NCBI GenBank assembly: GCA_963808235.1
Contig: CAWEEQ010000004.1
Coordinates: 781,084-845,083, forward strand
Source: an uncultured delta proteobacterium
GTDB taxonomy: Bacteria; Desulfobacterota; Binatia; Binatales; Binataceae
DNA: 64,000 bases
Direction: 5' to 3'
The notes under the pieces were generated by a model. That model searched no databases, was not told the origin of the DNA, and was given only the letters and a program-made list of their open reading frames with translations. The position numbers were made by a program, and so were the translations under genes. Every line of letters begins with the position of its first letter. The stretch's first letter is position 1. This document shows, in pieces, positions 23,758 through 63,513 of the stretch.

Positions 23758-23792
23758 AGGTTCGGATTCGCCATTCCGGGCGGAAGCCGCCG

Positions 23793-32384: not shown

Positions 32385-32526
32385 TCTAAAGCGTGGCATC
32401 TTTATTTACTTTATTTTATGTCTCATTGCTTTGTTTATTCTTTTATGGTACAGTCTTACATAGCGTGCATCCCTTACGATTCATGCGTCGAATCGCGTAC
32501 TGACCTGAGCAGTGAGAAAAAAAACC

Positions 32527-33252: not shown

Positions 33253-33262
33253 GCCGAGTGGG

Positions 33263-34786: not shown

Positions 34787-34791
34787 CCGAT

Positions 34792-36375: not shown

Positions 36376-36393
36376 CGAACTTAGGTGTGACCC

Positions 36394-37254: not shown

Positions 37255-37257
37255 GCA

Positions 37258-38379: not shown

Positions 38380-38423
38380 CACACACCACTTAGATGTAGC
38401 ACTGAAAGAATGTGAGAACTGAG

Positions 38424-38924: not shown

Positions 38925-38941
38925 ATCAGGAGTCGAACGAG

Positions 38942-40078: not shown

Positions 40079-40085
40079 TAATGTT

Positions 40086-43114: not shown

Positions 43115-43115
43115 C

Positions 43116-44291: not shown

Positions 44292-44304
44292 GAGGAGTTA
44301 TCAA

Positions 44305-45120
44305 GTGCGCAGCGCAATACCATTGGTAGTAGGCTTGGGCGAAGTCGGAAGCGCCTTGTCGCAAGTGCTGAAGGGCGACGGCCGGCGCATCCTCGAGCAC
44401 GACATCGAAAGACGCGAGTTCGACGAACCGATCAGCGTGATGCATCTGTGTTTTCCATTCACCCGGCAGGATGCTTTCGAAGCTATCGCGCTTTCCTATA
44501 TCAAGCGGTTCAAGCCGGAACTGACTATCATCAACAGCACTGTAGTTCCCGGAACCAGCCGGTCGATAGCTGAAAAAGCGTCGGCGCCGGTTGCCTATAG
44601 TCCGGTGCGCGGCAAACACATCCGAATGGCGCAGGACCTGCTGAAGTACCGCAAGTTCGTCGCTGGCACCGATGATGAGACCACGAATCGAGCTGTCGAG
44701 CATTTTCGCGAAGCCGGAATGACTACTCAGTGCATTAGCAAGTTGGAGACTCTCGAGCTTGCCAAGCTCGGTGAGACTACCTACTTCGGCGTGCTGATCG
44801 CCTTCGCACAGGAGCTCAACCGTTACGCTAATCGGGTCGATGCTGACTATGTGGAAGCGCTGGACCTGTTCGAGGAAGTCGATTTTCTGCCGCCCACGAA
44901 ATACTACCCGGGCTTCATCGGCGGTCACTGTGTGATTCCAAATATACAATTGCTGCGCACGATTGCGTCGTCGCCACTGCTCGAGGCGGTCCTCGAATCC
45001 AACCGGATGCGCGCGGGCGAGTTGGCCAACGAAGCCAAGATGGCCCTCACGCCCGAACTCAAGCCGGGCGCTGCCGCCAACGGACACAAAACGGAGTCGC
45101 AGGCTCAGCTGCGTCGCTGA
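44305..45120 (+). CDS. short NAD-binding protein related to UDP-glucose/GDP-mannose dehydrogenases
   Basis: GTG start with AGGAGG 9 nt upstream; VVGLGEVG Rossmann; LELAKLGETTYFGVLIAFAQELN and GFIGGHCVIPN resemble the central domain and catalytic Cys. The C-terminal UDP-binding domain is missing. Confidence 0.45.
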   Translation: MRSAIPLVVGLGEVGSALSQVLKGDGRRILEHDIERREFDEPISVMHLCFPFTRQDAFEAIALSYIKRFKPELTIINSTVVPGTSRSIAEKASAPVAYSPVRGKHIRMAQDLLKYRKFVAGTDDETTNRAVEHFREAGMTTQCISKLETLELAKLGETTYFGVLIAFAQELNRYANRVDADYVEALDLFEEVDFLPPTKYYPGFIGGHCVIPNIQLLRTIASSPLLEAVLESNRMRAGELANEAKMALTPELKPGAAANGHKTESQAQLRR

Positions 45121-45139
45121 CGGCAGCCAAGAAGTGAAA

Positions 45140-46570: not shown

Positions 46571-46584
46571 CGGATGTGGGCGAC

Positions 46585-47385
46585 ATGAGGCAGAGGACTA
46601 ATAATCTTCCGATACTGATGTATCACGCGATCTGGTCGGGCGCGGACGGTGCGATCCCCAGGACGTCGAGCATCGAGCACGCTGTAAAGGATCGTGACTT
46701 CCGCGCGCAACTCGATGCGATCGTCAGTGGCGCGTTTCACACCATCAAGCTCGCCGACCTCGAGCATCCGGTTGATGCGCCGAAGCCGCTGTTGATCACC
46801 TTCGATGACGGCCATGAAAGCGACTTCACCATCGCCGCGCCCGAGCTCGCGCGGCGAAATCTGCACGCAATCTTTTTTGTCGTATGGTCCTACCTCGGAC
46901 AGCCCGGCTATCTGAGTCGAGAACAAGTGCTCGCGTTGCGTGAGCAAGGATTCGAAATCGGTTCGCATGGACTGACCCACGTCCCGCTCAGCAAGATAAG
47001 TCCGGCGCAAGCGTCGAACGAAATCCTCGAATCGAAGCACAGACTGGAAGACTTGCTCCAGCAGCCAATCGCAGGGCTTGCGCTTCCGTTCGGCCATTAC
47101 AACGATGCGGTGCTGAAAGCCGCGTGGGCCGCCGGCTATCGCCGGGTGATGACCTCGGACTTCAGGATTGCCAATCGGGAGCATCGGATCATGCCGCGGA
47201 TGGGACCGATGGCTGAGCATACGCTGGAGGATTTCAAGTGGATGCTCGAAGCGAGTCGTGCAGCCGCGATTCGTCATCGCACGATTGAGGCGATTGGTGA
47301 GCGGTTGAAACGCTTTATCAGCTATGGAGAGGCGCTGCTGATGCGCGCCCAGAATGGGGAGGTTCTAGCCAAGCCCGAGAAATAG
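46585..47385 (+). CDS. polysaccharide deacetylase (NodB homology domain)
   Basis: LPILMYHAI, ITFDDGHESD, GFEIGSHGLTH motifs. Confidence 0.82.
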   Translation: MRQRTNNLPILMYHAIWSGADGAIPRTSSIEHAVKDRDFRAQLDAIVSGAFHTIKLADLEHPVDAPKPLLITFDDGHESDFTIAAPELARRNLHAIFFVVWSYLGQPGYLSREQVLALREQGFEIGSHGLTHVPLSKISPAQASNEILESKHRLEDLLQQPIAGLALPFGHYNDAVLKAAWAAGYRRVMTSDFRIANREHRIMPRMGPMAEHTLEDFKWMLEASRAAAIRHRTIEAIGERLKRFISYGEALLMRAQNGEVLAKPEK

Positions 47386-47410
47386 TCGGCGCTGACTGAA
47401 AACAAATAAA

Positions 47411-48277
47411 ATGCGTGAACACGAAATGGCCGAATTCTTTCGAGCGCTGGGGCACAAGATCGTCCAGACCCGGAGCTGTTTCTGGTACAGCTCGCAGCGC
47501 TTCCTCTACAAGAACCTGCCGATTCATCGCAACGTCGACCCCTCGCAGTCCGAACTCGCCAAGGTGATGTTCCGCGGGACCGCATTGGCAATTCGTTATC
47601 CGGAAACCGCCGGCGAATCGACCCCGGACGGCGGGATTTACGTTTGCGCGGACCGGAATTACGACTTCGCGTCGCTTACCGCCAATGCTCGCAGCCATAC
47701 CCGGCGTGGACTTGCGCGCAACATCGTCGAACAGGTCGATTTCAATGATCTCGCGAACAAGGCTTACCCGCTAATCCAGGAAACCAACCTGCGCCAGACC
47801 GGAAAACAGCCGATGCGCAGCGAGTCGCATTGGAGATCGTTTTGCGAACTCTCACGCCGAACGCCCGGGCTGGAGGCTTGGGCCGCGTTCGTTGACGGTG
47901 AGCTGGCCGCGTTTATCGTCGCGATGATGGCCGAGGATTGTTACTACCTTCACCTGCAAAAGAGCGCGTCGGCCCTGCTCAAGCACTATTCCAACAACGC
48001 CTTGCTGTTCACCGTGATGAAAGCGGCGCTCGCACGTCCCGAAGTCGGCTGGGTTTCCAACGGACAGATCGCGCTGGCCGCGAAAGAGGGTCTTTACCAT
48101 TTCAAGACCAGCATGGGCTTCGACATCCATCCGTTTAAAGAGCGGCTGGTTTTCAATCCGCTGATCAAGCCTGGTCTGTGGGCGGGCAGGGCGCTGACCA
48201 GCCGGCTCACGAAGGTCAATCCGGAAAATCTTTTCTGGCGGAGAGCTTCACGGGCATTCGACCTGGCGGGGGATTGA
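47411..48277 (+). CDS. FemAB/BioF2-like GNAT acyltransferase
   Basis: 288 aa; AAFVDGELAAFIVAMMAEDCYYLHLQKSASALLKHYSNNALLFTVMK...YHFKTSMGF resembles PF13480-type acyltransferases found in EPS loci. Confidence 0.5.
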   Translation: MREHEMAEFFRALGHKIVQTRSCFWYSSQRFLYKNLPIHRNVDPSQSELAKVMFRGTALAIRYPETAGESTPDGGIYVCADRNYDFASLTANARSHTRRGLARNIVEQVDFNDLANKAYPLIQETNLRQTGKQPMRSESHWRSFCELSRRTPGLEAWAAFVDGELAAFIVAMMAEDCYYLHLQKSASALLKHYSNNALLFTVMKAALARPEVGWVSNGQIALAAKEGLYHFKTSMGFDIHPFKERLVFNPLIKPGLWAGRALTSRLTKVNPENLFWRRASRAFDLAGD

Positions 48278-48439
48278 GGGCCAGTGAAGACGCATCAAAT
48301 GTCACTGGAAGGTTTGCTCGGAGTCGACGAGACGCAACACGGCCCCTGCAGGAATAGGGCGTTCGGATCAGGCACCGGTATCGTCGGTTGTGAAGGGCCC
48401 TGTATCGGAAATTATCTGAGTCCGGAGGGAACTGGCAGA

Positions 48440-48715
48440 TCAGGCTTCGACTTCCGCGGGCAGGTCTCGAAGGCATTTGCCGCAAAGCGCGTAGCACTCT
48501 TCCGGATCATCGCTCATGGCAAGAATTGCTACCACCCACGAATTGAGATCCGCGCACCGATGACAAACGAGCAAGCCACCTTCGGATCGAATCTTGAACC
48601 AGCACTCGGCGATTGTCACCGGATCTTCGATCAATTCGACGCGTACGCAACTGTCTTCAGGTTCCAAGGACGGTTCCATGACTTCTGGTGCTACGAATTT
48701 GGTGCGGCTGTTCAT
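48440..48715 (-). CDS. small hypothetical protein with CxxC...CxxC pattern, opposite strand to the EPS operon
   Basis: 91 aa from the ATG at 48715 (GAGGGG upstream); CHRC ... CGKC. Confidence 0.4.
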   Translation of the reverse strand: MNSRTKFVAPEVMEPSLEPEDSCVRVELIEDPVTIAECWFKIRSEGGLLVCHRCADLNSWVVAILAMSDDPEECYALCGKCLRDLPAEVEA

Positions 48716-48872
48716 AGTTAAACCCCTCAGCAAGGTCGCATCGAGCCCTAATCGAGCAACCATCATGCCAGTCAACCGCTTCCTTTCGCCCCGATTAAGG
48801 ACGGCAATTTGATAAGGATTGTGGGCATTGGGAAGGAAATGCCCGGTCGGCGCCAATTCGGGAGGTTTGTCG

Positions 48873-49745
48873 ATGCTGTTGGAGTCTAAAGAGGTGAAAA
48901 ATTTACGGGATTACCGGATTGAGCCTGATACGGCAATTCCGTTAAGGGTTGTTCGTCCAAGTAGAGTCAGGGAACTAACGATGTTCGAGGGAATATCGAG
49001 AGCGCCGTCTGATCATGGACCAGACGATGAACATGGGAATAGACTCCGCGGCCACCTGAAACGACGGGCCATCGATGAGATCGAACGGCTTTTCGGTTGG
49101 CTGAACAAACGCCAGCGAATCGAACCATCGGCACAACTGGTCAAGGTGAACCTGGGCAGCGGACTCTTCGTGGCTCCGGGATGGATCAACCTGGATGCCA
49201 GCGTAAAAACCGTGTTCGCGAGGCTCCCGCGTTTCGCGCTGCGCTGGACCTATCCGCTGGCGAACGTCCGGAACACGCACTCGCGCGATGAATTCGTCGC
49301 CTTGCTGCGGGATAATCGGTTTATTTTCCACAATTTGAAATATGGAATCCCGCTTCGAGATTCTTCGGTTGATTTCATTTATGCCTCCCACATGTTGCAT
49401 CACCTCTATCGTGACGACGCTTTGAAACTTCTTCGGGAGGCAATCCGGGTGCTCAAGCCAGGCGGCACCATGAGAATTGCGGTGCCAGATCTCGAACTTA
49501 TCGTCCGGCTATATCTGGAAGGGAGACGCGAGCAGGCACTGGGATATTTTTTCTATTTGCGGAGTCCAAGGAGCAACTTGAGCAGGCGCTACTATCAGTA
49601 CGATTTCACGCTCTTGAAGGTTCTTATGGAAGAAGCCGGAGCGCGGAACGTCCGACGTTGCAAGTTTCGGGAGGGCAGGGTCCCTGACCTCGAGCAGCTC
49701 GACCGGTTGTCCGAGGAGACCCTGTTCGTGGAAGGGGAACGTTAA
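48873..49745 (+). CDS. class I SAM-dependent methyltransferase
   Basis: VNLGSGLFVAPGWINLD (motif I), LKPGGTMRIAVPD. The ATG at 48873 has GGAGG 7 nt upstream. Confidence 0.78.
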   Translation: MLLESKEVKNLRDYRIEPDTAIPLRVVRPSRVRELTMFEGISRAPSDHGPDDEHGNRLRGHLKRRAIDEIERLFGWLNKRQRIEPSAQLVKVNLGSGLFVAPGWINLDASVKTVFARLPRFALRWTYPLANVRNTHSRDEFVALLRDNRFIFHNLKYGIPLRDSSVDFIYASHMLHHLYRDDALKLLREAIRVLKPGGTMRIAVPDLELIVRLYLEGRREQALGYFFYLRSPRSNLSRRYYQYDFTLLKVLMEEAGARNVRRCKFREGRVPDLEQLDRLSEETLFVEGER

Positions 49746-49884: not shown

Positions 49885-50718
49885 ATGAAGCGGCTCAGAC
49901 GCCCAAGAAAGCGAATTTTGGATGCTTCCGCCAGTCCGCCGGTGGAAAAGCCCTTGGAAATTCAGGCCCTTTTGAAGCTCTTTCCGACCCTCGAATCCGA
50001 AAAACTCAAACGGCTGGCCGGCGAGATGTCGTTGGTGCGATTCAAACGAGGCGATCGCATTCGCGTCGACACCCAGTCATCGACGGACGTACTGGTGGTT
50101 TTGAAGGGAGCGATCGCGATCACCTGGCAGCACGACAGCCGCCATCAGGTGCTGGTCACGATGCTCGCGCCGGGAGAAATGTACGCGGTTTCCACGCTGC
50201 TACCCGAGATGGCGCAAGGCCTGAAAGGCTGCGCATTCACCAGCAGCCTGGTAGCGACGATCGATTCGAAGAGGCTGGTGGAGATAGTTCTCGGCGTCGG
50301 GCTGGGAGCGTTCAAATCAGCGATGGAAATGACGGTTGGATGGTCGGCCGAAACGCTCATGCGATACATCAAGATGTTTCACATGGCGCCGCGCGATCGT
50401 CTAGTCATTGCGCTGATCGAGATGGGCGCAAAGTTCGGCGTGCGTGACTCGAGAGGCCTCATTCTGAATTTGCCGATGACTCAGAAGGACCTGGCCAACC
50501 TGCTGGGCGCATCGCGGCAAAAGGTCAACGCATACCTGGGCGAACTGGTGCGCATGGGAGCGGTGATCAATCTGAGCCGGCAGATCGTTCTGGTTCCGGA
50601 CAAGCTATTCGCGTTGGTCGGCGATCCCGATGTCCATTACTACAGCGCGCCGCACAAGCATTCGGTTGCCAAACCGCACGACCTCTCGTCGCATTCAAGA
50701 CGCGAGATGCATCTCTAA
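49885..50718 (+). CDS. Crp/Fnr-family transcriptional regulator
   Basis: cNMP-binding-like beta-roll (FKRGDRI...VLKGAIAI) and C-terminal HTH TQKDLANLLGASRQKVNAYLGELVRMGAV. Confidence 0.8.
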   Translation: MKRLRRPRKRILDASASPPVEKPLEIQALLKLFPTLESEKLKRLAGEMSLVRFKRGDRIRVDTQSSTDVLVVLKGAIAITWQHDSRHQVLVTMLAPGEMYAVSTLLPEMAQGLKGCAFTSSLVATIDSKRLVEIVLGVGLGAFKSAMEMTVGWSAETLMRYIKMFHMAPRDRLVIALIEMGAKFGVRDSRGLILNLPMTQKDLANLLGASRQKVNAYLGELVRMGAVINLSRQIVLVPDKLFALVGDPDVHYYSAPHKHSVAKPHDLSSHSRREMHL

Positions 50719-53852: not shown

Positions 53853-55274
53853 ATGGCAGATCGGTCGCGATGGCAGATTCCGGTTACAACGGTACCCGCA
53901 ATCGTACTTGTGTTGCTTGGTTACGATGGCTTGAACTCGCTCATTGGGGGAGCGCAGGCGATCGTTCCAACGCTGACTTACGTTTCAACATCGAATGGCG
54001 CGACCTTTTTCGTATCTCTTGATGGCAGAGATTCGGGGGCGGGTAGCTCGGGTTCTCCGTGGCGGACGATTCAAAAAGCGGCCGACACGTTGCAGCCCGG
54101 GCAGACCGCGATAGTAGCGGCCGGCAACTACGGCGAGCGGGTGGAGATTTCGCATTCGGGGACGCGGACGGCTCGGATCACATTACGAGCCGCGAGCGGT
54201 GCGGACGTTCAGCTCCTGGGCTTCGATCTTACCGGAAGCAACTGGGTGCTGAGCGGGTTTGATATCTCCACCCGCAGGAACGGGCGCCAGGGCTATGGGA
54301 TCCACGTGTCCGGTTCGGCCTCGCACGACATTATTCAGAACAACTACATCCATGAACTTTGCCGCGAGGGGATTTTCATGGAGTCGGGAGTCTCGTACAT
54401 TTCGGTTCTCAACAACCGCATCTGGCGGGCCGAGATGGCGGGTGCGCAGGTCGACGGCACCGACGACCTGATCGAAGGCAACGAAGTCTGGGGAACTCAG
54501 CAGGAGCCGGTCCGGGCCGGTGGAATCTATTCGGGATGCGTAACGCCCGACGGCGCCGACGCGGACGCGTTCCGCTTCTTCGGGCAGCATAACGTGTTCC
54601 GATCCAACTACGCGCACGACGTCTACACCGCGTTGCCGACCAACCCCGATCCGCATACCGACTGCTTTCAGACCTGGGGCAGCACCGCGATGAAGGTGGA
54701 CGACATCCTCATCGAGCGAAACGTCTGCCGCTGGCCGGTCGCGTCGACCAAGGTGGACGCGTCGACCGCGATGATCGAGGGAATCGACGGGCCGGTGGGA
54801 ACAGTGACCTTCCAGAACAACCAACTGTCGAATATGCGGCAGGGGATTGTCGTCGGGAATAAGGTCGAGGCGCTGAAGATCTACAACAACACCTGGGACC
54901 ACATCGTGGAAGAAGCGCTGATCTTCAACGACACGAGATCTCCTGCCGACGAGATCATCAACAATATTTTCTATGACGTCGGCGCTGGCGGCGATGCTTA
55001 CGCGTCGGTTCCGAGCGGCAGCCCGCTCTTCCGGAGCAACGTCTTCTACATGCCGGGCGGTGCCAGCGTTGGCACTTATCCGAGCGTGGAGCCCTATACA
55101 AGCGTCGATCCGAGGTTCGCCAACCCCGGCGACTCGACCGGTGCCGGCGCCGATCTGCATCTCCAGGAAAGCTCGCCGCTCAAGCGCTCCGGGGTAACGC
55201 TTCCCCAGGTTACCGATGACTACTACGGAACCAGCCGCGCCGGTGCGGCGTACTCAGTGGGTGCCGCGCGATGA
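53853..55274 (+). CDS. secreted right-handed parallel beta-helix protein (module-family gene A)
   Basis: Signal/anchor VTTVPAIVLVLLGY. FFVSLDGRDSGAGSSGSPWRTIQKAADTLQPGQTAIVAAGNYGE is a DUF1565/pectate-lyase-fold entry. Repeated N..I....G turns follow. A GTG at 53811 is an alternative start. Confidence 0.72.
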   Translation: MADRSRWQIPVTTVPAIVLVLLGYDGLNSLIGGAQAIVPTLTYVSTSNGATFFVSLDGRDSGAGSSGSPWRTIQKAADTLQPGQTAIVAAGNYGERVEISHSGTRTARITLRAASGADVQLLGFDLTGSNWVLSGFDISTRRNGRQGYGIHVSGSASHDIIQNNYIHELCREGIFMESGVSYISVLNNRIWRAEMAGAQVDGTDDLIEGNEVWGTQQEPVRAGGIYSGCVTPDGADADAFRFFGQHNVFRSNYAHDVYTALPTNPDPHTDCFQTWGSTAMKVDDILIERNVCRWPVASTKVDASTAMIEGIDGPVGTVTFQNNQLSNMRQGIVVGNKVEALKIYNNTWDHIVEEALIFNDTRSPADEIINNIFYDVGAGGDAYASVPSGSPLFRSNVFYMPGGASVGTYPSVEPYTSVDPRFANPGDSTGAGADLHLQESSPLKRSGVTLPQVTDDYYGTSRAGAAYSVGAAR

Positions 55275-55508
55275 TTGTCACTATGGGGACACCGTCGCGC
55301 GCAGTCGGCCGTGGACGGGCAGACCGGTTGCGCGATCCCTCATGTGTCAGGGGCGTAGCCTCTCTGCGACAGTTTGTTGCACCTTCCGCAAACAAGGAAC
55401 CAGTTGTCTTAGTGAGTTGTAGCGAATCACTACAACGCGCAACGGCACATTTCGTGCTCCGCAGACTTGTTGGATTCTCGCGTCGCTTTAGGTTGATCGG
55501 GTTCGCAT

Positions 55509-55583
55509 CGGAGCGTTGCTGTCGCTCCGGTGCGGACCAATTCAAAGCTCCAGCCGGAGCGTTGCTGTCGTTCCGGCGCGGAC
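55509..55583 (+). repeat. two copies of a 29-bp hairpin-forming direct repeat
   Basis: cggagcgttgctgtcgctccggtgcggac (55509-55537) and cggagcgttgctgtcgttccggcgcggac (55555-55583). Each folds as CGGAGCG-TTGCTGT-CG(C/T)TCCG. Confidence 0.85.
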
Positions 55584-55721
55584 GGAAACAAACGGAGCGC
55601 GCCGGCAAATGCCCCGCGCTCAGGGGAAAAGGAGTGCGACACTGATGTATCGGTAACTTGCGATGGAGTGCTGTCCATCGCAGGTACCGATCCCACATTG
55701 CACCAAAGCGTTTTTAAGTCA

Positions 55722-55755
55722 GGCGCCACGTGTTGCCTTTAGTGATCGTGGCGTC
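55722..55755 (+). promoter_or_regulatory. conserved 5'-UTR stem-loop upstream of gene B (second copy at 58031-58064 upstream of gene C)
   Basis: GGCGCCACG-[tgttgcctttagtgat]-CGTGGCGTC versus GGCACCGCG-[tgttgcctttagtggt]-CGTGGTGCC: a 9-bp stem kept by a compensatory G-C to A-T change and wobble swaps. GGGGGAG RBS follows. Confidence 0.55.
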
Positions 55756-55772
55756 GGGCTTGGGGGAGAAAA

Positions 55773-57860
55773 ATGGCAACAGAAAAGGCCTTGGGCCTGC
55801 GCAGGCTAATCCTTGTCGCGGCGATCGGATTTCTTCTGATCCTGCTCGGTCACAGCCGGGCATACGCTGCGAGTCCCATCCACATTAACAAACCGGCACC
55901 CGACTCGGTCGTCTCCGACTTGGTGACCACGCTGGTTCGGGTCAAGCCGAAGGTCGCCAAGATAGTTTTCATGCTCGATGGCAACCCGCTGTCGACCACT
56001 ACCTCAACCAGCTTCACCTGGAATTCGGCGACGGTTGCGAACGGGATGCATACCATCGCCGCCAGCGCCTACTCTTCATCCAACCAGTTGCTGAAGACGG
56101 TCACCGAGCAAATCAGAGTTGCGAACAAAAAACCTCCTCCGCCGACTCGTACTCCGACGCCAACCTCCACGCCGACGGCCACCCCGGTGCTTTCGTTCGT
56201 GTCTCCGACCAGCGGGCAGACGCTCAGCGGATCGATAAGCGTCGCGCTGTCATTCTCGAGCCCACCATCGCAAACCAACCCTGGCGCGGTTTGGTGGACC
56301 GAATTGTCCGTCGACGGTGCACCGGTGGTTTCCGGATACAACAATTTGCCCTGGGACACGACCACGGTCGGCAACGGATCGCATACCTTGCGCGTGGATG
56401 GTTACGCGTACAACGGGACAACTTCGATCGGCAATGCGACCATCAACGTGACGGTCAACAACTCGGGCGTAACCGCAACTCCGACGGCTTCATCGACGCC
56501 CACGATCGGCCCGACGCCGACCGTGACCGCTACACACACGGGCACCCCAACCACCGCTCCGACGCCGACTGCGACACGAACGGCGACTCCGACTCTCGGC
56601 GCGACACCGACTGCGACGTCCACCCTGCACGCGACCCCGACTGCGACGTCAACGCCGGGCGGATGCGTCAGCATCACGGCACCGGCTCCCAGCGCGACCG
56701 TCAATGGCATCGTGGCCATCAACACTAACGACACTTGCTCAGGCGCCTGGTTTGAATCGCTCTACGTCGACGGCGCGCATGTTTCCGACTTTCCGGTCGG
56801 ACAGATCATGTTCACGAGCACTAGCTACGCCAACGGGATGCACACCATCCAGGTGACCAGCCAGAGCACCAATCCGGGTTCGGTCCAGCTTGGCAGCGCG
56901 TCCGAAGCGTTGAACGTGCAGGCGGGTTCGGCGACCAAGACAGCCACCGCGACGCCTACCACGAAGCCGAGCGCGACGCCGACGCCGGGAGGGGGCCATT
57001 ACTCAATGATGGGACCCGGAGCGTCTCTGCCGAGCGAAGCGGCTTGCGTCAGCGCGGTGAACGCGTCGCCTATTCCGGAGAACGCGCCGTGGAACCAGGA
57101 CGACGGCACCGGCTTTAACTCGAATCTGCCTCCATCCGGCGGTGTGCCGGCGTACTTCTACGCCAACGCGCCGTGCTGCAACGAATTGCCGCATGCGGAT
57201 TTTGCCAACGTCGACGGAAACTATTCGGGCTCCACAGATGACCTCATCCGAATCACCGCCTGCAAGTGGGGTATCGACGAAGACTACGTGCGCTCGCAGG
57301 CGTGGATCGAATCCGATTGGCATCAGGACTGCTCCGCGGCGCATGGCGGCTCCGACTGTCAGGAAGGCGGCGATATGGACAGCCCGAGCGGCGATCCGTC
57401 AGGCCTGGCGGTCACTTCGATATCGCCGGGAGGCGTATTCAGCGCCTTCAACGGATTTGGAAATCCCGGCGGCCCAACCGATCACTGGGATTCGTGGAGC
57501 ATCGTTCAGACCAAGGTGTACTACGAGTGGATGACGTGGCCGATGATGGAGGAGTCCACGCCTTTCGGGCTCGATTTTCGCTACGCGGAGATGCGCGGTT
57601 GCGTCAACGGCGATCAATATAGCTACTACAATAGCCAGTCATCCGCGCAGGGCACTGACTATCAGAATGCCGTCAATGCCGCCCGCAACAATCCGAACGG
57701 AGCATCGGCAGTCACAGGCTGGACCAACCTTCAGTACCTTTCGTACGGATGCATCGACACCCACTTTTCCGGCGACTGGTTCAACGGCACAGCCGACAGC
57801 TATCTGAACGAGTTCCTGAACAGGTTGGCAACCGCACCGTGGCCGGGCGGTCTGCAGTAG
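55773..57860 (+). CDS. secreted multidomain protein: 3 Ig-like modules, Thr/Pro linkers, Cys/Trp-rich C-terminal domain (gene B)
   Basis: Signal peptide ...LLILLGHSRAYAA. Three roughly 90-aa modules end in ...NGMHTI/NGSHTL... Linkers are TPTPTSTPTATP-type. The C-terminal roughly 310 aa contains AWIESDW ... WSIVQT and is otherwise unassigned. Confidence 0.7.
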   Translation: MATEKALGLRRLILVAAIGFLLILLGHSRAYAASPIHINKPAPDSVVSDLVTTLVRVKPKVAKIVFMLDGNPLSTTTSTSFTWNSATVANGMHTIAASAYSSSNQLLKTVTEQIRVANKKPPPPTRTPTPTSTPTATPVLSFVSPTSGQTLSGSISVALSFSSPPSQTNPGAVWWTELSVDGAPVVSGYNNLPWDTTTVGNGSHTLRVDGYAYNGTTSIGNATINVTVNNSGVTATPTASSTPTIGPTPTVTATHTGTPTTAPTPTATRTATPTLGATPTATSTLHATPTATSTPGGCVSITAPAPSATVNGIVAINTNDTCSGAWFESLYVDGAHVSDFPVGQIMFTSTSYANGMHTIQVTSQSTNPGSVQLGSASEALNVQAGSATKTATATPTTKPSATPTPGGGHYSMMGPGASLPSEAACVSAVNASPIPENAPWNQDDGTGFNSNLPPSGGVPAYFYANAPCCNELPHADFANVDGNYSGSTDDLIRITACKWGIDEDYVRSQAWIESDWHQDCSAAHGGSDCQEGGDMDSPSGDPSGLAVTSISPGGVFSAFNGFGNPGGPTDHWDSWSIVQTKVYYEWMTWPMMEESTPFGLDFRYAEMRGCVNGDQYSYYNSQSSAQGTDYQNAVNAARNNPNGASAVTGWTNLQYLSYGCIDTHFSGDWFNGTADSYLNEFLNRLATAPWPGGLQ

Positions 57861-57877
57861 TCGGCGAAAACGAAACA

Positions 57878-57914
57878 GTTGGGGGCGACTGGATACTCAG
57901 TCAGCGCCCCCAAC
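57878..57914 (+). terminator. GC-rich hairpin after gene B (candidate terminator, no U-tract on + strand)
   Basis: gttgggggcgact-ggatactc-agtc(ag)cgcccccaac, 18 nt after the stop. A second hairpin aaatgtc-actgtgga-gacattt lies at 57914-57935. Confidence 0.45.
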
Positions 57915-58082
57915 AAATGTCACTGTGGAGACATTTAGATAGTCAATAACGATAGTCAGAACCAGGCTGGAACGAGGTCCGATAGTAGGCGCTGGCTGTA
58001 GATTGCCGGGGAATTGGGTTTTTTAAGCCAGGCACCGCGTGTTGCCTTTAGTGGTCGTGGTGCCGGGCTTGGGGGAGAAAAA

Positions 58083-60323
58083 ATGGCAACGGAAAAGGCC
58101 TTGGGCCTGCGCGGGCTGCCGCTTGTCGCGACGGTCGGACTGTTTCTTATGCTGCTCGGTCACGGCCAGGCTTACGCGGCGGGTCCCATCCACATTAATG
58201 CGCCGGCCCCGGACGCGGTCGTCTCCGACATGGTGACGACATTGGTTCGGATCAAGCCGCAGGTCGCTCGGGTAGTTTTCCTGCTTGACGGCAACCTGTT
58301 GGCGTCGACTTCGTCCACCAGCTACACGTGGGATTCGGCGACGGTTGCGAACGGTATGCATACCATCGCGGCCAGCGCCTATACTTCATCCAATCAGTTG
58401 CTGCGCACTGTCTCCGAGCGAATCAGGATTGCGAACAAGCATAAACCGACTCCAACCCCCACTCCGACCACCACGCCGACTGTTACTGCCACTGCCACGA
58501 CCAACCCCACACCGACCGCGACTGCCACCTCGACACGGACGAGGACTCCAACTGTCACCGCGACGACGACCGCGAGTGCCACTGCGACACGAACGGCGAC
58601 TGCGACTGGGACACGAACGGCGAGCCCGACCCCGACTGCGACGTCAACGCCGGGCGGATGCGTCAGCATCACGGCACCGGCTCCCAGCGCGACCGTCAAT
58701 GGCATCGTGGCCATCAACACCAACGACACTTGCTCAAGCGCCTGGTTTGAATCGCTCTACGTCGACGGTGCGCATGTTGCCGATTTTCCGGTCGGACAGA
58801 TCATGTTCACGAGTACGAACTACGCCAATGGAATGCATACCATCCAAGTGACCAGCCAGAGCACCAATCCGGGTTCGGTCCAGCTTGGCAGCGCGTCCGA
58901 AGCGTTGAACGTGCAGCCGGGCGCCACGGCCACGCCGACATCAACCGCGACGCCAACGGCGACCTCCACATCGACTTCGTCGGTCCAGCCGACCCCGACG
59001 GCCACGTCGACGCCCAACGGCTCGACGTTCTACGTATCGCCAACCGGTAGCGACTCGGCGTCTGGCAGTTCGGGCTCACCATGGCGCACGATTCAGAAGG
59101 CAGCGGACACGCTGCTGGCGGGACAGACTGCGATCGTATCGGCAGGCAACTACGGCGAGCGCGTCTCGATCTCGCGCTCCGGCACGTCGTCCAGTCCGAT
59201 CACCTTGCAGGTCGCAAGCGGTGCGGATGCCCAACTCCTCGGCTTCGATCTCACAGGCAGCAACTGGGTTCTGGACGGCTTTGACATCTCGACCCAGACC
59301 AATGGCAGCGAAGGGTACGGGATCCACGTAGACGGTTCGGCCTCGTATGACACGATTCAGAACACCTATATCCATGAACTCTGCCACGAGGGCATTTTCA
59401 TGGAGTCAGGGGTCTCGCACATCTCGGTGCTGAACAACCGCATCTGGCGGGCCGAGATGGCAGGTGTGCAGGCCGATGGCGTGTACGATCTGATCGAGGG
59501 CAACGAAGTCTGGGACACTCAGCAGTATGCGATGAATGCGGGTGGAATTTACTCGGTGTGCACGATTGCCGGCGGCGCCGATGCGGACGCGTTCCGCTTC
59601 TTCGGCCAACATAATGAGTTCCGTTCTAACTACGCACACGACATTTACCACGATATGCCAGGCGATCCGCATCCTACCAATCCCAATCCTCACACCGATT
59701 GCTTCCAAACTTGGGGGAACTCTGCAATGACGGTGAGCGATATTCTATTTGATCGCAACCTTTGTCGCTGGCCAGGAACTAATCAATTTCAGCTTGCAAA
59801 TATAAATTCTACAACGCTTGCAAACATTGGGGTTAATGAAGGCGCAGTAACTAACTTAACCTTTCAAAACAACATACTCTCCAATTCAGGACAGGGAATA
59901 GATATTGAAGGTGGCGTTGGTCCAGTAAACGCTTATAACAATACTTTTGTTCATATAGCGCAGGAAGGATTAGTTTGTAATGGCGCTCGTACATCAGCGG
60001 ACCAGATCATGAACAACATTTTCTACGATGTTGGCGATGGTGGTGATTCGTACACTTCAGGCTGTCAGAATTCAACATTCAATAATAATGACTTCTACAT
60101 GCCGGGCGGCGTCAGCGTCGGCACCTATCCGAACGTCGAGCCGTACCTGAGCCTCGATCCGTTGTTCGTCAACTTCGGCGACGCGACCGGCGGCGGCGGG
60201 GATTTCCATCTGCAGTCCGGCTCGCCGCTAAAAGGCGCCGGGACCACGGTCTCGACCGTCACCAATGACTACTACGGCACCAGCCGGGTGGGGGCAGCAT
60301 ACTCAGTCGGCGCCGCTCAATGA
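58083..60323 (+). CDS. secreted multidomain protein: 2 Ig-like modules, Thr/Pro linkers, beta-helix domain (gene C)
   Basis: The N-terminus is colinear with gene B (MATEKALGLR...). The second Ig-like module is nearly identical to module 3 of gene B. The C-terminal roughly 440 aa is colinear with gene A (STFYVSPTGSDSASGSSGSPWRTIQKAADTL...). Confidence 0.75.
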   Translation: MATEKALGLRGLPLVATVGLFLMLLGHGQAYAAGPIHINAPAPDAVVSDMVTTLVRIKPQVARVVFLLDGNLLASTSSTSYTWDSATVANGMHTIAASAYTSSNQLLRTVSERIRIANKHKPTPTPTPTTTPTVTATATTNPTPTATATSTRTRTPTVTATTTASATATRTATATGTRTASPTPTATSTPGGCVSITAPAPSATVNGIVAINTNDTCSSAWFESLYVDGAHVADFPVGQIMFTSTNYANGMHTIQVTSQSTNPGSVQLGSASEALNVQPGATATPTSTATPTATSTSTSSVQPTPTATSTPNGSTFYVSPTGSDSASGSSGSPWRTIQKAADTLLAGQTAIVSAGNYGERVSISRSGTSSSPITLQVASGADAQLLGFDLTGSNWVLDGFDISTQTNGSEGYGIHVDGSASYDTIQNTYIHELCHEGIFMESGVSHISVLNNRIWRAEMAGVQADGVYDLIEGNEVWDTQQYAMNAGGIYSVCTIAGGADADAFRFFGQHNEFRSNYAHDIYHDMPGDPHPTNPNPHTDCFQTWGNSAMTVSDILFDRNLCRWPGTNQFQLANINSTTLANIGVNEGAVTNLTFQNNILSNSGQGIDIEGGVGPVNAYNNTFVHIAQEGLVCNGARTSADQIMNNIFYDVGDGGDSYTSGCQNSTFNNNDFYMPGGVSVGTYPNVEPYLSLDPLFVNFGDATGGGGDFHLQSGSPLKGAGTTVSTVTNDYYGTSRVGAAYSVGAAQ

Positions 60324-60372
60324 TGGGCGCGGAGGAGATCGAAGATAGTCAATAGCTATAGTCAGAATCAGT

Positions 60373-61695
60373 TCAGAGCGACGTCCGGTAATAGTGAATC
60401 GATTGCCGCAACCCGCCTCCGAGGCGGGTGCGGATGTACCCCAGCATCTCATTCGTCAGCAGGTACTTGGGGCGCAGATAAACGCCGCCATTGTTGAGCG
60501 AGAACAGGATGCGGTGGAATTTCCAGTTGTTGAAATTGCGCAGCAGCCGGAACCGCGCCGATACTCCCAGCGTCTGTATCCCGAAAGGGAACTTGAAGCC
60601 AAACCAAAGCGGCTGAGAATTGATCGCCAGGTCGGGCTCGGTCGAATTGTCTATTTCCTCGAGCGAACCCTCCGCCAACCTGAACCTGACCGTCTTGTCG
60701 AGGTCGGGTATCTGAATAGTCACTGGACGGAGCATCCGTAGCAGGAGCATCGAGTATTTGTCGCGCATCTGCGCGGCAAGACCGTCGTAAGCGGCAACAA
60801 TTTCAGGCATCGATTTGCTCTCGACCGGATCGTACGTGCGCTCATCGACGCTCGGCAGTTGATCGAATCGCGTCAGCGCATCCGACGAATCGTGTTCGGC
60901 GCCAACTTCGTAGATATCCCCCGGATACAGCACCACTGCGCGCTGACCTTGGCGGCTTAAATAATTGGCGGCGTCGCGCGCGGAATTCGCAAAATTATTG
61001 ACGTACTTGTTGTCGAGGCTCGAAAAGTAGATGAAGCTCGCAAACGGGATTGTCGCTTTCGCATCCAGGCCGCGATGCACTGAAGATACATTTTCGAGAA
61101 TCTGCGCAGCTCGCTGCGGCAGAAATTTCTCATGCGGCTCAAAGCCGGCGTAGGCGGCCAGCGAGAACTGATTAAGGAGAACATCGACGCGTCCGATGTC
61201 GTGCAGGATGCCCTTGCATTCGCCGGCGCTGATGCGTGCGTCGTTGGCGTTGAAGATGACTTGTCCTTTACTCAGTACCGCCAGCGCGGAGTCCATTATC
61301 CCGGCGTGATAGCAATATACTTTCGTCGCATCGGGCTTGCTGCTCAGCGATACGATCATCCGATGCGGCAGCCGCTGAAATCGCTCATAGCCAAGCTTGC
61401 GAAACGCCGCGAACATCTTTGTGTAATCGCGATCCTGAAAGAGGATCGTCACCCGCGCTTTGAAGTCAGCCGGAAATGATCCGAGGGTCGGGAAGTGACA
61501 ATGATCGGGATGCTCGTGCGAGATCCAGATGTACTCGACCTTGTCGAGCACCGCCTGGTCGAACTTTGGTTCCGGCAGCAGAGTCCATGAGTCGTTGAAA
61601 ATTTTTCCGAATAGCCAGGGATCCATCAGGATCGACGTGTCGGCGCATTCCGCGACGATGCATGCATGTCCGACAAAGTGAATTTTCATGAGCAC
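60373..61695 (-). CDS. MBL-fold metallo-hydrolase with long C-terminal extension (paralog 1)
   Basis: 440 aa; KIHFVGHACI...DPW...IWISHEHPDHCH (HxHxDH). The roughly 300-aa C-terminal part has no family I can name. Confidence 0.65.
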   Translation of the reverse strand: MLMKIHFVGHACIVAECADTSILMDPWLFGKIFNDSWTLLPEPKFDQAVLDKVEYIWISHEHPDHCHFPTLGSFPADFKARVTILFQDRDYTKMFAAFRKLGYERFQRLPHRMIVSLSSKPDATKVYCYHAGIMDSALAVLSKGQVIFNANDARISAGECKGILHDIGRVDVLLNQFSLAAYAGFEPHEKFLPQRAAQILENVSSVHRGLDAKATIPFASFIYFSSLDNKYVNNFANSARDAANYLSRQGQRAVVLYPGDIYEVGAEHDSSDALTRFDQLPSVDERTYDPVESKSMPEIVAAYDGLAAQMRDKYSMLLLRMLRPVTIQIPDLDKTVRFRLAEGSLEEIDNSTEPDLAINSQPLWFGFKFPFGIQTLGVSARFRLLRNFNNWKFHRILFSLNNGGVYLRPKYLLTNEMLGYIRTRLGGGLRQSIHYYRTSL

Positions 61696-62109: not shown

Positions 62110-63513
62110 GTGAAAGTGACCCTGGTTTCGCATGCTTCGGTGATAATTGAGTCACAAGGAGTCAGAATTTGGACTGACCCGTGGCTCACGGGCAAAGTCT
62201 TCAATGAATCGTGGTCGCTGTTTCCGCCGGCGGCATTTGATCCTGCGATGCTTGATTCGATCGACTACCTGTGGATTTCGCACATTCATCCGGATCACTT
62301 CCACATTCCAAGCCTGAATTCGCTTTCCCCGCAGTTCAAACGCCGGGTCAAGGTCCTGTTCCAGGACAATCACGCCGATCAACTTTTCGAAGTGATGAAA
62401 AAGTGCGGATACCAGAACTTCCAGGCGCTGCGGCATCGCCGGATGGAGTCTCTCAGCGAGCACACGTCAGTCTACTCCTACAGCGCCGGGACCCTGGATT
62501 CCTGCCTGGGCGTGATGGAGCCGGAAGGGGGCTTGTTCAACATCAACGACTCGCGGCTGAATGCGACCGATTGTCGTCGTGTGAAGTCGGACATGGGGCG
62601 GATAGACACGGTGCTGAGCCAGTTTTCGCTGGCGGTCTATAATGGTCTTCAACCGCGCGAATCTCATCTGCGCCGCGGCGCGGCGGCGATGTTGGAAAAG
62701 ATTTTCGATAATCACGCGAACCTGGGCGCCCGGATCACGATTCCGTTCGCGAGCATGATGCGTTTTTCGCTGGTCGACAATCGTTACATGAATGCATTTG
62801 CGAACCGTCCGCGCGACGTGTGGGAACATGCCGCCGTACGAGGTCTCGGGGTGGCGATCCTGTTCCCGGGCGACACTTACAATTCATCCACCAGCTACGA
62901 TTCGACCCAGGCGCTTGAAAAATACGACGCGGTCTACGAGACCATCGACCAGTTTCCCTACGACACGCCGGCGGCGGTCCCGCTGCAGCCGATCGAAGAA
63001 GCTTTCCACGAGATGGTACGCCATTTGCGTGAAAAGTATCCCGCGCCGATACTTCGGATGCTGCGCGGGGTGGTGGTGAAGTTGCCCGACCTCGACAAGA
63101 CCGTGGCGTTTTCGATTCCGGCCGACTCCTTCAGCGAAGTCGATTCGTCAGAGTCGCCCGACATCTTGATGTGTTCGCAGGCCCTGCATTTTTGTTTCTT
63201 CCGTCCGTACGGGCTGCAGACGCTCTCGAGCTCGGCGCAGCATACCGTGGTGCGCAACCTGGCGAATTGGCGGATCCATCGCGCGCTGTTCGCGCTGAAC
63301 AATGCGCAGGCATACGGCCGACTCCGCTATCTGCTTCGCCGCGACACCATAAGTTTTTTCGCGAAAAGAATTAGAGCCATGGTCCGTTACACCGACCTCA
63401 CCCACGCCCGGCTCAGATATCCGTACAGCTATAAGCCAAAGCATCACTCCAGCATCCCAACTGAGGCGGGGCAGGTAATGGGTCCGTTGGATCGATCCGG
63501 GCATTCGGAGTGA
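62110..63513 (+). CDS. MBL-fold metallo-hydrolase with long C-terminal extension (paralog 2)
   Basis: 467 aa, GTG start; KVTLVSHASV...DPW...LWISHIHPDHFH. Colinear with 60373-61695 over the whole length (LNQFSLA / LSQFSLA, IPFAS, PDLDKTV). Confidence 0.65.
   Translation: MKVTLVSHASVIIESQGVRIWTDPWLTGKVFNESWSLFPPAAFDPAMLDSIDYLWISHIHPDHFHIPSLNSLSPQFKRRVKVLFQDNHADQLFEVMKKCGYQNFQALRHRRMESLSEHTSVYSYSAGTLDSCLGVMEPEGGLFNINDSRLNATDCRRVKSDMGRIDTVLSQFSLAVYNGLQPRESHLRRGAAAMLEKIFDNHANLGARITIPFASMMRFSLVDNRYMNAFANRPRDVWEHAAVRGLGVAILFPGDTYNSSTSYDSTQALEKYDAVYETIDQFPYDTPAAVPLQPIEEAFHEMVRHLREKYPAPILRMLRGVVVKLPDLDKTVAFSIPADSFSEVDSSESPDILMCSQALHFCFFRPYGLQTLSSSAQHTVVRNLANWRIHRALFALNNAQAYGRLRYLLRRDTISFFAKRIRAMVRYTDLTHARLRYPYSYKPKHHSSIPTEAGQVMGPLDRSGHSE

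Follow-up and report, generated by a model that had tools for sequence, protein, structure and literature searches.

Interchangeable cassettes as a candidate origin of three glycan-enzyme-like genes at the edge of a Binataceae EPS locus

Three adjacent genes beside an EPS locus of an uncultured Binataceae bacterium from soil share some of their modules and differ in others, raising the question of how these modules came to be combined and what the encoded proteins act upon. Examining the 64,000-nt stretch of DNA that contains them (the window) together with related loci, we favor with moderate confidence an explanation in which the edge of the EPS locus is a recombination-prone slot, occupied by Sec-exported enzymes that cleave glycans and were put together from exchangeable cassettes.

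Module composition of the three genes

The preliminary description of this DNA had placed three ORFs here; all are intact, and an independent gene caller's record, on a contig of 3.85 Mb, holds identical products of 473, 695 and 746 aa, without product names. Module boundaries were drawn from blastp, codon alignment and Pfam, and these bear out the module map drawn earlier, with modules that are homologous between genes. The same N-terminal scaffold precedes two unrelated C-terminal domains in genes B and C, as had been claimed, and one of these domains, the beta-helix, also occurs scaffold-free in gene A. The features are as follows.

32.5-49.7 kb: Wzx/Wzy EPS locus, closed by a Crp/FNR-type regulator
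49885-50718, plus strand: Crp/FNR-type regulator (Pfam), conserved left landmark of the slot
53853-55274, plus strand: gene A, hydrophobic N-terminus, then a stand-alone right-handed beta-helix
53853-53972, plus strand: A N-terminal hydrophobic stretch (aa 1-40), either a signal peptide or a signal anchor
Gene A, aa 41-473, plus strand: A beta-helix
55711-55772, plus strand: B leader/RBS region, duplicated 5' of C and kept 5' of B orthologues (eight-sequence alignment)
55773-57860, plus strand: gene B, signal peptide, Ig1, Ig2, Ig3 and LYS domain, with linkers
55773-55868, plus strand: B signal peptide (aa 1-32, AYA/A)
55869-56126, plus strand: B Ig1 (aa 33-118), then a T/P linker
56184-56462, plus strand: B Ig2 (aa 138-230)
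56463-56654, plus strand: B second T/P linker (aa 231-294)
56632-56921, plus strand: Ig3 high-identity tract of B, corresponding to 58627-58916 in C (290 nt, 12 mismatches, 94-nt identical run)
56655-56927, plus strand: B Ig3 (aa 295-385)
56928-56996, plus strand: B linker after Ig3
56997-57857, plus strand: B C-terminal lysozyme-like (LYS) domain (aa 409-695), divergent SLT/GH23-like lysozyme fold
57880-57990, plus strand: non-coding relic 3' of the B stop (beta-helix 3' end, spacer, MBL1 3' end)
58020-58082, plus strand: C leader, copy of B's (B/C nt homology and alignment)
58083-60323, plus strand: gene C, signal peptide, Ig1, Ig3 and beta-helix, with linkers
58083-58178, plus strand: C signal peptide (aa 1-32)
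58179-58436, plus strand: C Ig1 (aa 33-118)
58437-58655, plus strand: C T/P linker (aa 119-191)
58656-58928, plus strand: C Ig3 (aa 192-282), then a linker
58998-60320, plus strand: C beta-helix (aa 306-746)
59467-60066, plus strand: C beta-helix tract, 600 nt, 98-99% identical to related locus L081 (sliding window)
60373-61695, minus strand: MBL1, Lactamase_B_3-like, 440 aa (Pfam), conserved right flank of the variable slot
62110-63513, plus strand: MBL2, Lactamase_B_3-like, 467 aa
From ~63541, past the window end: GT2 gene, after MBL2

Ig1 and Ig2 score above the Pfam Big_7 cut-off; Ig3 falls below it (15 bits vs 24.1), with an alignment covering the same profile span. Tandem repeats are present within the T/P linkers, and there is no similarity between A and B. 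The scaffold had been presented as one for display, a view that finds no support: sequence inspection revealed no lipobox Cys, PEP-CTERM tail, C-terminal barrel or other anchor, which argues that the Ig modules serve soluble exported enzymes as spacers or, possibly, glycan-binding modules. All three proteins would then be soluble and either periplasmic or secreted, since a Sec signal alone is no proof of passage past the periplasm.

Two candidate catalytic domains

The suggestion that the beta-helix acts on polysaccharide agrees with its nearest structural matches, the lyases and epimerases Pel9A, PsAly, AlgE4 and RbmB. Its dense invariant Asp, His, Arg, Asn and Gln columns indicate an active site, most likely that of an EPS lyase or hydrolase and less likely that of an epimerase. 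Scores against the NCBIfam PelN/PelX equivalogs were far under the cut-offs (35.6 vs 740; 21.3 vs 1490).

The C-terminal domain of B, described earlier as Cys/Trp-rich and unplaced, with a weak lysozyme hint, could be assigned to the lysozyme/SLT fold. The AWIES of its AWIESDW motif contains the putative catalytic residue Glu513 (codon 57309-57311), which is invariant across the LYS family (55/55 sequences), and the ES motif of the family profile aligned with MltC. The motif-II equivalent is SIVQTK (aa 576-581), at the position of which P0295, matching both the LYS family profile (E 5.6e-66) and Pfam SLT above cut-off, has FGLMQIK. Pfam SLT does not match B itself, Foldseek gave no significant result for LYS, and a weak Glucosaminidase match occurs in 19/55 members. 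Besides an invariant GD (533-534) and four invariant Cys, the domain has an invariant Glu/Asp/Gln/Lys set that indicates an active site, in which Glu513 may act as a single general acid.

Members of this family are found fused to Wzy_C membrane domains (P0245, P0269), to GH5 (P0330) and to a dockerin (P0312), in all cases with an intact ES motif. In 7-10 of 78 loci, independent LYS paralogues have EPS export, chain-length and ATPase genes as neighbours, and many others (e.g., L002) lie in housekeeping surroundings without EPS genes. A live alternative, possible although on the unlikely side, is that LYS is a true peptidoglycan enzyme (a lytic transglycosylase or muramidase) and that only the beta-helix enzymes act on EPS; it might open the sacculus locally for a trans-envelope EPS export machinery, much as specialised lytic transglycosylases serve secretion systems, or kill competitors. 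However, the fusion partners point to glycans other than peptidoglycan, the lysozyme-fold matches to LYS include chitinases, a GH124 cellulase and a GH134 mannanase, and the family is nearly missing from phage contigs (3/2.9 M) and from PHROGs. Neighbour clustering showed no recurrent immunity-like partner gene. In addition, LYS shares its exchangeable scaffold and its slot with the EPS-lyase-like domain, suggesting a common substrate context. Action on the host's own EPS, the reading we prefer, is suggested by synteny and by the domain fusions.

Cassette exchange at a variable slot

The EPS locus lies upstream of the three genes and the MBL pair and GT2 gene downstream, as first described. 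Four further ORFs separate the Crp/FNR-type regulator from gene A in the window; in L016, L018 and L082, the Crp orthologue directly precedes the cassette genes. MBL1 is syntenic in L001, L003, L016, L018 and L081 and degraded in L082. The slot, running from Crp to MBL-MBL-GT2, keeps its place beside the EPS locus but varies in content among related genomes. It holds A and B(Ig1-Ig2-LYS) in L001/L003, A and B(Ig1-Ig3-LYS) in L016/L018, B and C in L081, and only one gene, Ig1-Ig2-beta-helix, in L082; B orthologues carry Ig2 or Ig3, never both. The A-B and B-C-MBL arrangements recur in a small number of close relatives (L001, L003, L016, L018, L081) and are uncharacterised there, so that the cluster is not a widely conserved operon of established function.

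Cassette exchange, as proposed in the preliminary description, is backed by these loci, by mosaic divergence and by sequence relics. B and C are 82% identical (nt) in the signal peptide, 83% (77% aa) in Ig1 and about 95-96% (94-96% aa) in Ig3; the beta-helices of A and C are 70% identical (68% aa). The B/C homology in self-blastn begins 62 nt 5' of the ATG, at 55711 and 58020, and the leader therefore belongs to the cassette. Synonymous divergence (dS) between B and C is 0.18 in Ig3 and 0.39 in SP-Ig1, an age difference with only about 90-120 codons behind each value, and reaches 1.5 between the A and C beta-helices. The Ig3 tract has sharp edges, the linkers beside it being essentially unalignable, and the two Ig3 copies resemble each other more closely than any orthologue's Ig3 (≤82% aa); we interpret the tract as a recent intragenomic copy or gene conversion between B and C. 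More generally, the scaffold is nearer within the genome than to orthologues, and the catalytic domains show 86-94% identity with their orthologues. For C orthologues (P0186, P0187/L081), aa identity is 94% in the beta-helix, 81-82% in Ig3 and 60-62% in SP-Ig1. Compared with L081, dS is 0.195 in the beta-helix vs 0.76 in MBL1 and 0.69-0.80 in the scaffold part of this gene pair, and the flanking MBL genes are ~82% identical; we interpret the 600-nt tract as recent inter-lineage recombination.

The relic behind B starts with a stretch resembling the last ~30 nt of a beta-helix ORF (frame ..GYSVSAP vs AAYSVGAAQ-stop), continues with the spacer AGATAGTCAATA(A/G)C.ATAGTCAGA and ends in ~20 nt from the 3' end of MBL1, a part that is weak taken alone. 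Self-blastn matches 57893-57988 to 60299-60394, and the Smith-Waterman score is 60 vs a shuffle mean of 15.6 (z=20; 0/1000 shuffles). The same beta-helix relic occurs behind the B orthologue of L003 (z=11.6). A beta-helix 3'-end fossil behind a lysozyme-like gene argues that B arose by replacement of a beta-helix cassette, and the duplicated spacer/MBL1-end fragment between B and C that C arrived, or was duplicated, beside B. The units exchanged are the Ig modules and the catalytic domain, any change of substrate specificity being a putative consequence.

In the mechanism we propose, a scaffold cassette would consist of a conserved leader, a signal peptide and Ig1 followed by Ig2 and/or Ig3, these Ig modules being of Big_7 type and joined by internally repetitive Thr/Pro linkers. 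It would combine with either of two catalytic cassettes: a Pel9A/RbmB-like right-handed beta-helix, or an SLT/GH23-like domain of divergent lysozyme fold whose single general acid would be Glu513. Recombination joints would lie in or at the repetitive linkers, and both catalytic domains would trim or degrade the amino-sugar-containing EPS of the adjoining locus.

A single tandem duplication with unequal module divergence, involving neither gene conversion nor inter-lineage exchange, would fit the duplicated spacer, and module rates do differ (dN/dS 0.34-0.37 in SP-Ig1 vs 0.13-0.14 in the catalytic domains). We consider it improbable, because synonymous divergence differs too, both within the window and against L081, because a 98-99% block stands in an ~82% background, and because the sharp Ig3 edges, the either-or distribution of Ig2 and Ig3 and the need of the relic for a replacement event all speak against it. 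Still less probable is a non-enzymatic surface or matrix role, as adhesins or as cell-displayed structural proteins of beta-helix/Ig type, given that anchors are missing, that the top structural matches are enzymes and that the invariant residues of both domains indicate active sites. Finally, although the source is an uncultured MAG and assemblers can be misled by repeats of ~300-500 nt with 82-96% identity, we give hardly any credence to chimeric or collapsed repeats, since the copies differ at many positions, all ORFs are intact, the contig is megabases long, the order B-end/C/MBL1/MBL2/GT2 recurs for a relative in ENA and JGI assemblies made independently, and A-B pairs recur in four other assemblies.

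Comparison with known enzymes

Compared with the SLT/GH23 superfamily (MltC, MltE, MltF, Slt70, g-type lysozyme, GH23 chitinase), LYS has four invariant Cys, a ~60-residue insertion between motifs I and II and an N-terminal extension of ~90 residues. Roughly half of it is without counterpart, and its fusion partners also set it apart.

Domain shuffling is classical in modular glycanases with Pro/Thr linkers, among them cellulases, xylanases and chitinases (e.g., Cex/CenA of Cellulomonas fimi). As in these, Thr/Pro-rich linkers here tie catalytic domains to small beta-sandwich modules, one ancillary module is attached to catalytic domains of unrelated kinds, and a catalytic domain also occurs alone. 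Unlike in these, a PL9-like beta-helix and an SLT-like domain that lacks annotation serve as catalytic partners, the ancillary modules, of Big_7 type, sit at the N-terminus and move with signal peptide and leader, and exchange can be traced, with sequence fossils, at one syntenic slot.

EPS operons encode periplasmic glycanases and lyases such as AlgL/AlgG, PslG, BcsZ and PelA, none of which, to our knowledge, has a lysozyme fold. By analogy, EPS processing by A, B and C would resemble that by AlgL/AlgG, PslG, BcsZ, WceF and RbmB in their own EPS systems. In contrast to AlgL/AlgG, PslG, BcsZ and PelA, two unrelated catalytic folds are present here in two to three genes, and copy number and architecture vary among close relatives.

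The beta-helix of A and C differs from Pel9A and the PL9 pectate lyases, and from the alginate lyase PsAly (PL31), in a context of EPS synthesis rather than pectin use. Cluster-encoded beta-helix EPS enzymes are on record in WceF of Pantoea stewartii, a trimeric, tailspike-like stewartan hydrolase (PMC7949094), and RbmB of Vibrio cholerae, a VPS lyase (PMC11637428, PMC12993940), to which the beta-helix is just ~15% identical. The abstracts and listings for these two enzymes describe neither exchangeable Ig scaffolds nor a stand-alone/fused pair, both of which are present here. The modular evolution seen at this locus is of a known kind, and one of its domain families is new.

Modules of three putatively exported genes and their slot

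The slot that we examined, a variable stretch bounded by a Crp regulator on one side and by MBL1(-)/MBL2(+)/GT2 on the other, holds three genes whose coordinates, as proposed in the preliminary description, were recovered by an ORF check, all on the + strand, and by an independent gene caller (positions are window coordinates):

53853-55274, + strand: gene A, 473 aa, signal/anchor and beta-helix
55773-57860, + strand: gene B, 695 aa, signal peptide (SP), Ig-like modules Ig1, Ig2 and Ig3, and a C-terminal lysozyme-like domain, LYS (aa 409-695)
58083-60323, + strand: gene C, 746 aa, SP, Ig1, Ig3 and beta-helix
60373-63513: a divergent pair of MBL-fold (Lactamase_B_3) genes of ~440-470 aa with ~43% mutual identity, then GT2

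The gene caller also places exactly these three products, without names, on a public contig of 3.85 Mb. Pairwise comparison at the nucleotide and amino-acid levels upheld the proposed module map. The SP (aa 1-32, with a cleavage-like AYA|A) and Ig1 (aa 33-118) of B and C are 82-83% identical in nucleotides and 72-77% in amino acids, Ig3 (B 295-385, C 192-282) is 95% and 96% identical, respectively, and the beta-helices of A (41-473) and C (306-746) are colinear, with 70% nucleotide and 68% amino-acid identity; no similarity was found between A and B. The Pfam searches that had been suggested as a check recovered part of this map, namely Big_7 (PF17957) for Ig1 (31.3 bits) and Ig2 (26.5 bits; gathering cut-off 24.1) and beta-helix families for A and C, and gave no match to LYS. 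Ig3 remained under the Big_7 cut-off (15.2 bits for the B copy and 15.4 for the C copy, spanning profile positions 3-70); with 27-30% identity to Ig1 and Ig2, it is probably a divergent relative. The linkers of B and C are Thr/Pro-rich and contain short tandem repeats with periods of 6, 12, 24 and 30 nt.

Nucleotide homology between B and C begins 62 nt 5' of the ATG, at 55711 and 58020, so that the leader belongs to the exchanged cassette. This leader of ~70 nt (55711-55772 and 58020-58082), also kept upstream of B orthologues, is conserved before every SP-Ig1 gene, including those at the related loci L001, L003, L016, L018 and L081, with the consensus TTTTT..AGCC.G.C.CC.C..TGTTGCCTTTAGT..GTGG.GCCGGGCT.GGGGGAGAAA..ATG. 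It may contain a promoter, operator or structured 5' UTR, and the neighbouring Crp-type regulator may target it. Scanning for promoter and terminator consensus sequences gave background levels, and Rfam and tRNA scans of 53-60 kb returned no matches.

Upstream of the slot, the window contains a complete Wzx/Wzy-type exopolysaccharide (EPS) locus (32512-49745), so that the cluster indeed lies, as originally noted, between an EPS locus and the MBL pair with GT2.

Genes of the EPS locus and its surroundings
EPS locus: Poly_export, GNVR chain-length determinant, AAA_22+LysM ATPase, kinase-like protein
EPS locus, continued: GFO oxidoreductase, DegT aminotransferase, Bac_transf priming transferase, flippase, GT4
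EPS locus, continued: Wzy_C, polysaccharide deacetylase, FemAB-like acetyltransferase, methyltransferase
After the locus: Crp-type regulator, membrane protein, HTH protein, UppS, unassigned protein, then A, B, C
Beyond C: two MBL-fold genes, then GT2

The sugar-modifying genes suggest that the polymer contains amino sugars. The export, chain-length and AAA_22+LysM ATPase proteins match XrtA/PEP-CTERM models best, all under the NCBIfam cut-offs (pepcterm_export 121.6/180, ChnLen 100.6/278.9, ATPase 208.3/324.5); by these curated thresholds the locus is a relative of XrtA/PEP-CTERM systems and falls outside them. The C-termini of A (..YSVGAAR), B (..PWPGGLQ) and C (..YSVGAAQ) carry no PEP-CTERM motif, and with neither sorting tails nor locus proteins above the cut-offs we rejected the three products as PEP-CTERM/exosortase substrates. 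Elsewhere in the window, a block at 23201-29755, after tRNA-Arg(cct), has a G+C content of 55-56% as compared with ~60% and encodes an RND efflux system (OEP, HlyD-type MFP and AcrB-type pump); the block may be a genomic island or may simply reflect compositional variation. A gene at 7406-10843 (- strand) encodes a large signalling ATPase of 1145 aa (double zinc ribbon, adenylate/guanylate cyclase, AAA_16 and TPR) that is unrelated to A, B and C.

Traces of cassette exchange

Comparing the same locus in related genomes, as had been proposed, revealed module combinations that differ among relatives.

Slot contents in the window and in related loci (BH, beta-helix)
Window: A + B(Ig1-Ig2-Ig3-LYS) + C(Ig1-Ig3-BH)
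L001, L003: A + B(Ig1-Ig2-LYS)
L016, L018: A + B(Ig1-Ig3-LYS)
L081 (closest relative): B-type 3' end + C orthologue
L082: one Ig1-Ig2-BH gene, straight after a complete EPS locus

The MBL pair and GT2 form a conserved right flank in all of these, with the first MBL gene shrunk to short fragments in L082. Across the databases, no scaffold, Ig1-Ig2 and Ig1-Ig3 each occur in combination with LYS and with the beta-helix.

The window itself carries footprints of such replacements. The 110 nt following the stop codon of B (57880-57990) match three elements in succession: the final ~30 nt of an ORF for a beta-helix, in a frame reading GYSVSAP (compare AAYSVGAAQ and stop); the spacer AGATAGTCAATAGCTATAGTCAGA; and the 3' end of MBL1, represented by about 20 nt (Smith-Waterman z = 20; the observed score was reached in 0/1000 dinucleotide shuffles). 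A beta-helix 3' relic likewise occurs behind the B orthologue of L003 (z = 11.6). These two relics argue that B descends from an Ig-beta-helix gene, in which LYS replaced the catalytic cassette before the window and L003 split. The spacer is present twice in the window, after B and after C, and this duplication shows that C came to the B/MBL1 junction by insertion or by tandem duplication.

Between B and C the scaffolds are 75% (SP-Ig1) and 94-96% (Ig3) identical in amino acids, as compared with 53-67% and 75-82%, respectively, between each of them and its own orthologues, while the catalytic domains are 86-94% identical to those of the orthologues, a pattern pointing to concerted evolution of the two scaffolds. 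The high-identity tract around Ig3 spans 290 nt (56632-56921 in B, 58627-58916 in C) and has sharp edges, an identical run of 94 nt and 12 mismatches, mostly synonymous transitions (dN/dS 0.11); the linkers on either side of it are barely alignable. Synonymous divergence is mosaic:

Synonymous divergence (dS) by module
Ig3, between B and C of the window: 0.18
SP-Ig1, between B and C of the window: 0.39
Beta-helix, between A and C of the window: 1.5
Beta-helix, between C of the window and C of L081: 0.195
Ig3, between C of the window and C of L081: 0.69
SP-Ig1, between C of the window and C of L081: 0.80
MBL1 (flank), between the window and L081: 0.76

In a sliding-window comparison with L081, positions 59467-60066 are 98-99% identical and their flanks about 82%, which we interpret as a recent inter-lineage recombination tract. 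Values of dN/dS lie between 0.1 and 0.37 across the modules (highest in SP-Ig1), and all modules are under purifying selection. Slot variants, relics, scaffold evolution, mosaic dS and the near-identical tract together bear out the cassette exchange put forward in the preliminary description.

Programmed diversification by a DGR or an invertible shufflon was rejected, as the mismatches are of an ordinary kind and no reverse transcriptase or recombinase ORF was found within 50-64 kb. The simplest mechanism to assume is ordinary recombination, homologous or illegitimate, probably assisted by the repetitive linkers.

The two C-terminal domains

Neither Pfam nor NCBIfam nor the PDB sequences yielded a match to LYS, and searching B against Pfam SLT (PF01464 clan) gave nothing even at E<=1. 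A profile of the LYS family found MltC as its best PDB sequence, only at E = 1.7, and aligned its segment ..ACKWGIDEDvvraqawiES.. with the catalytic segment of MltC (QIES). The Glu of the AWIESDW motif, Glu513, is invariant in 55/55 family sequences and lies in an E-S motif, the SLT/GH23 hallmark at the C-terminal end of a helix, which makes it the putative catalytic residue; 19 of the 55 members also matched the GH73 Glucosaminidase model weakly. The protein P0295, which contains two tandem LYS copies (LYS profile E 5.6e-66) and reads FGLMQIK where B has SIVQTK, passes the Pfam SLT gathering threshold (38 bits vs 21.3), and by matching both profiles it provides transitive support at the superfamily level only. 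Foldseek of LYS against the PDB returned no significant match; GH23 and GH19 chitinases are among the fold matches, and the structural likeness is confined to a core of ~120-170 residues. Sequence and fold evidence agree, and we conclude that LYS is probably a branch of the SLT/GH23 lysozyme-like superfamily that has diverged and bears insertions. The invariant Glu513, the MltC alignment, P0295 and the fold matches thus vindicate the weak lysozyme-like hint first noticed in B.

A word-indexed search yielded 146 LYS homologues, and a full profile search (E<=1e-3) 1,424 clusters at 50% identity. Nearly all of the 357 copies confirmed in a scan of GTDB species genomes belong to Binataceae or to MAGs labelled 'uncultured delta proteobacterium', with several paralogues per genome; the few others occur in Terriglobia, Hamadaea and Kouleothrix. 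LYS is found fused, with all motifs intact, to Wzy_C membrane domains (P0245, P0269), a GH5 cellulase (P0330) and dockerin (P0312), and further architectures, with P0347, P0288 and P0295 among those listed, include three CWB2 repeats, an NHL propeller and a tandem pair behind Big_7; Glu513 is retained whether the fusion partner is Wzy_C, GH5, dockerin or CWB2. The JGI name 'autotransporter family porin', borne by homologues of 238-388 aa (P0100, P0102, P0105-P0107), has no supporting domain evidence and looks like annotation carry-over. Among 2.9 million viral contigs (IMG/VR) we detected only three LYS relatives (L083, L084, L085; 28-32% identical, and in two cases close to a contig end), which may be host flanks of prophage calls, and a PHROGs search found nothing; with so few and weak viral relatives, a phage-endolysin origin was set aside.

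The beta-helix of A and C matches Beta_helix, DUF1565 and NosD above the Pfam cut-offs, and an identical database protein bears PF22842 (Pel9A-like), so that both the parallel beta-helix fold and a family HMM match place it with PL9/Pel9A-like proteins. An AlphaFold2 model built with 46 sequences has a pLDDT of 88.8 (residues 1-46 disordered), and tailspike depolymerases and GH28, GH87 and GH120 enzymes rank lower among its structural matches. Numerous Asp, His, Arg, Asn and Gln columns are invariant across the alignment, including D236, D238, R241, H255, D256, H268 and D270, the pattern expected of an enzyme; the domain would be a lyase, a hydrolase or an epimerase. Scores against the NCBIfam PelN/PelX equivalogs were far under the cut-off, and PHROGs gave only a marginal tailspike match to A. 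At their C-terminal ends, over ~55 residues (60158-60320 or aa 692-744 in C, and the equivalent stretch of A), the beta-helix proteins weakly match NCBIfam 'choice-of-anchor Q' (21.6 bits vs a cut-off of 25), a domain that usually neighbours C-terminal sorting signals; no such signal follows it in C or A.

Predicted function and relation to known systems

The signal peptides of B and C end in AYA|A without a Cys, the first Cys occurring at aa 298 (B) and aa 193 (C), and we found no lipobox, sortase/PEP-CTERM signal or outer-membrane barrel in A, B or C. The idea of a display scaffold is therefore unsupported; most simply, the three products would be soluble periplasmic or secreted enzymes, with the Ig modules predicted to act as spacer or binding modules.

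We consider it somewhat probable that LYS acts in EPS processing. It shares slot and scaffold with a lyase-like domain, and in 7-10 of 78 loci independent LYS paralogues have genes for EPS export, chain length and the ATPase as neighbours. The intact motifs of the Wzy_C, GH5 and dockerin fusions and the near absence from phage contigs also favour a substrate other than peptidoglycan, as does the existence of lysozyme-fold enzymes that act on such substrates (GH23 chitinase, GH124 and GH134). Action on peptidoglycan, which we regard as less likely, would fit the top structural and motif matches (lytic transglycosylases and muramidases), the CWB2-LYS fusion and the ExeA-like ATPase with LysM in the EPS locus. 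The full proposition, that LYS is a new lysozyme/SLT-fold glycanase family whose native substrate is Wzx/Wzy-made EPS and not peptidoglycan, is put forward tentatively. Under the EPS proposal, an SLT-like enzyme would have been recruited to EPS processing, fused in some bacteria directly to the membrane domain of a Wzy-type polymerase/ligase. In Binataceae it would trade places with a lyase-like beta-helix, both being carried by one type of Ig scaffold, at a recombination hotspot of the EPS locus, and strains could in this way come to cut the matrix polymer differently.

AlgG is a same-fold example of an EPS-locus enzyme that modifies or cleaves its own polymer. The beta-helix enzymes RbmB (PMC11637428, PMC12993940) and WceF (PMC7949094) are described as acting on the polymer of their own EPS locus. 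In fold and in being encoded beside an EPS locus, the beta-helices of A and C resemble all three, and by analogy they would fit the pattern of an EPS locus that carries its own polymer-cleaving or polymer-modifying enzyme. Nothing pertinent came out of literature searches on Binatota EPS biology or on enzymes of the lytic-transglycosylase type in Wzy loci. What is new here is LYS itself, an SLT-like family that had no annotation and is tied to EPS biology, with about 1,400 clusters at 50% identity and an expansion in Binataceae, a widespread uncultured soil lineage; the use of one exchangeable scaffold of leader, signal peptide and Ig modules for both LYS and a PL9-like beta-helix; and an exchange unusually well documented at a single slot of an uncultured lineage. 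Should LYS cleave EPS and not peptidoglycan, the biofilm-matrix enzymes would gain a new fold, and CAZy a candidate family. The three genes also open a way into the matrix biology of a phylum from which no member has been cultured.

Domain shuffling in secreted glycan-active enzymes is textbook knowledge, and Pro/Thr linkers with shuffled ancillary modules are a classical theme of modular glycanases. It is rarely caught with its footprints, and this slot, which combines sister-genome alternatives, a replaced-cassette fossil, a duplicated junction, an intragenomic conversion tract and an inter-lineage recombination tract, offers a clean natural case of the rebuilding of modular enzymes. In their linkers and shuffled ancillary modules, A, B and C are the same kind of system as the classical modular glycanases.
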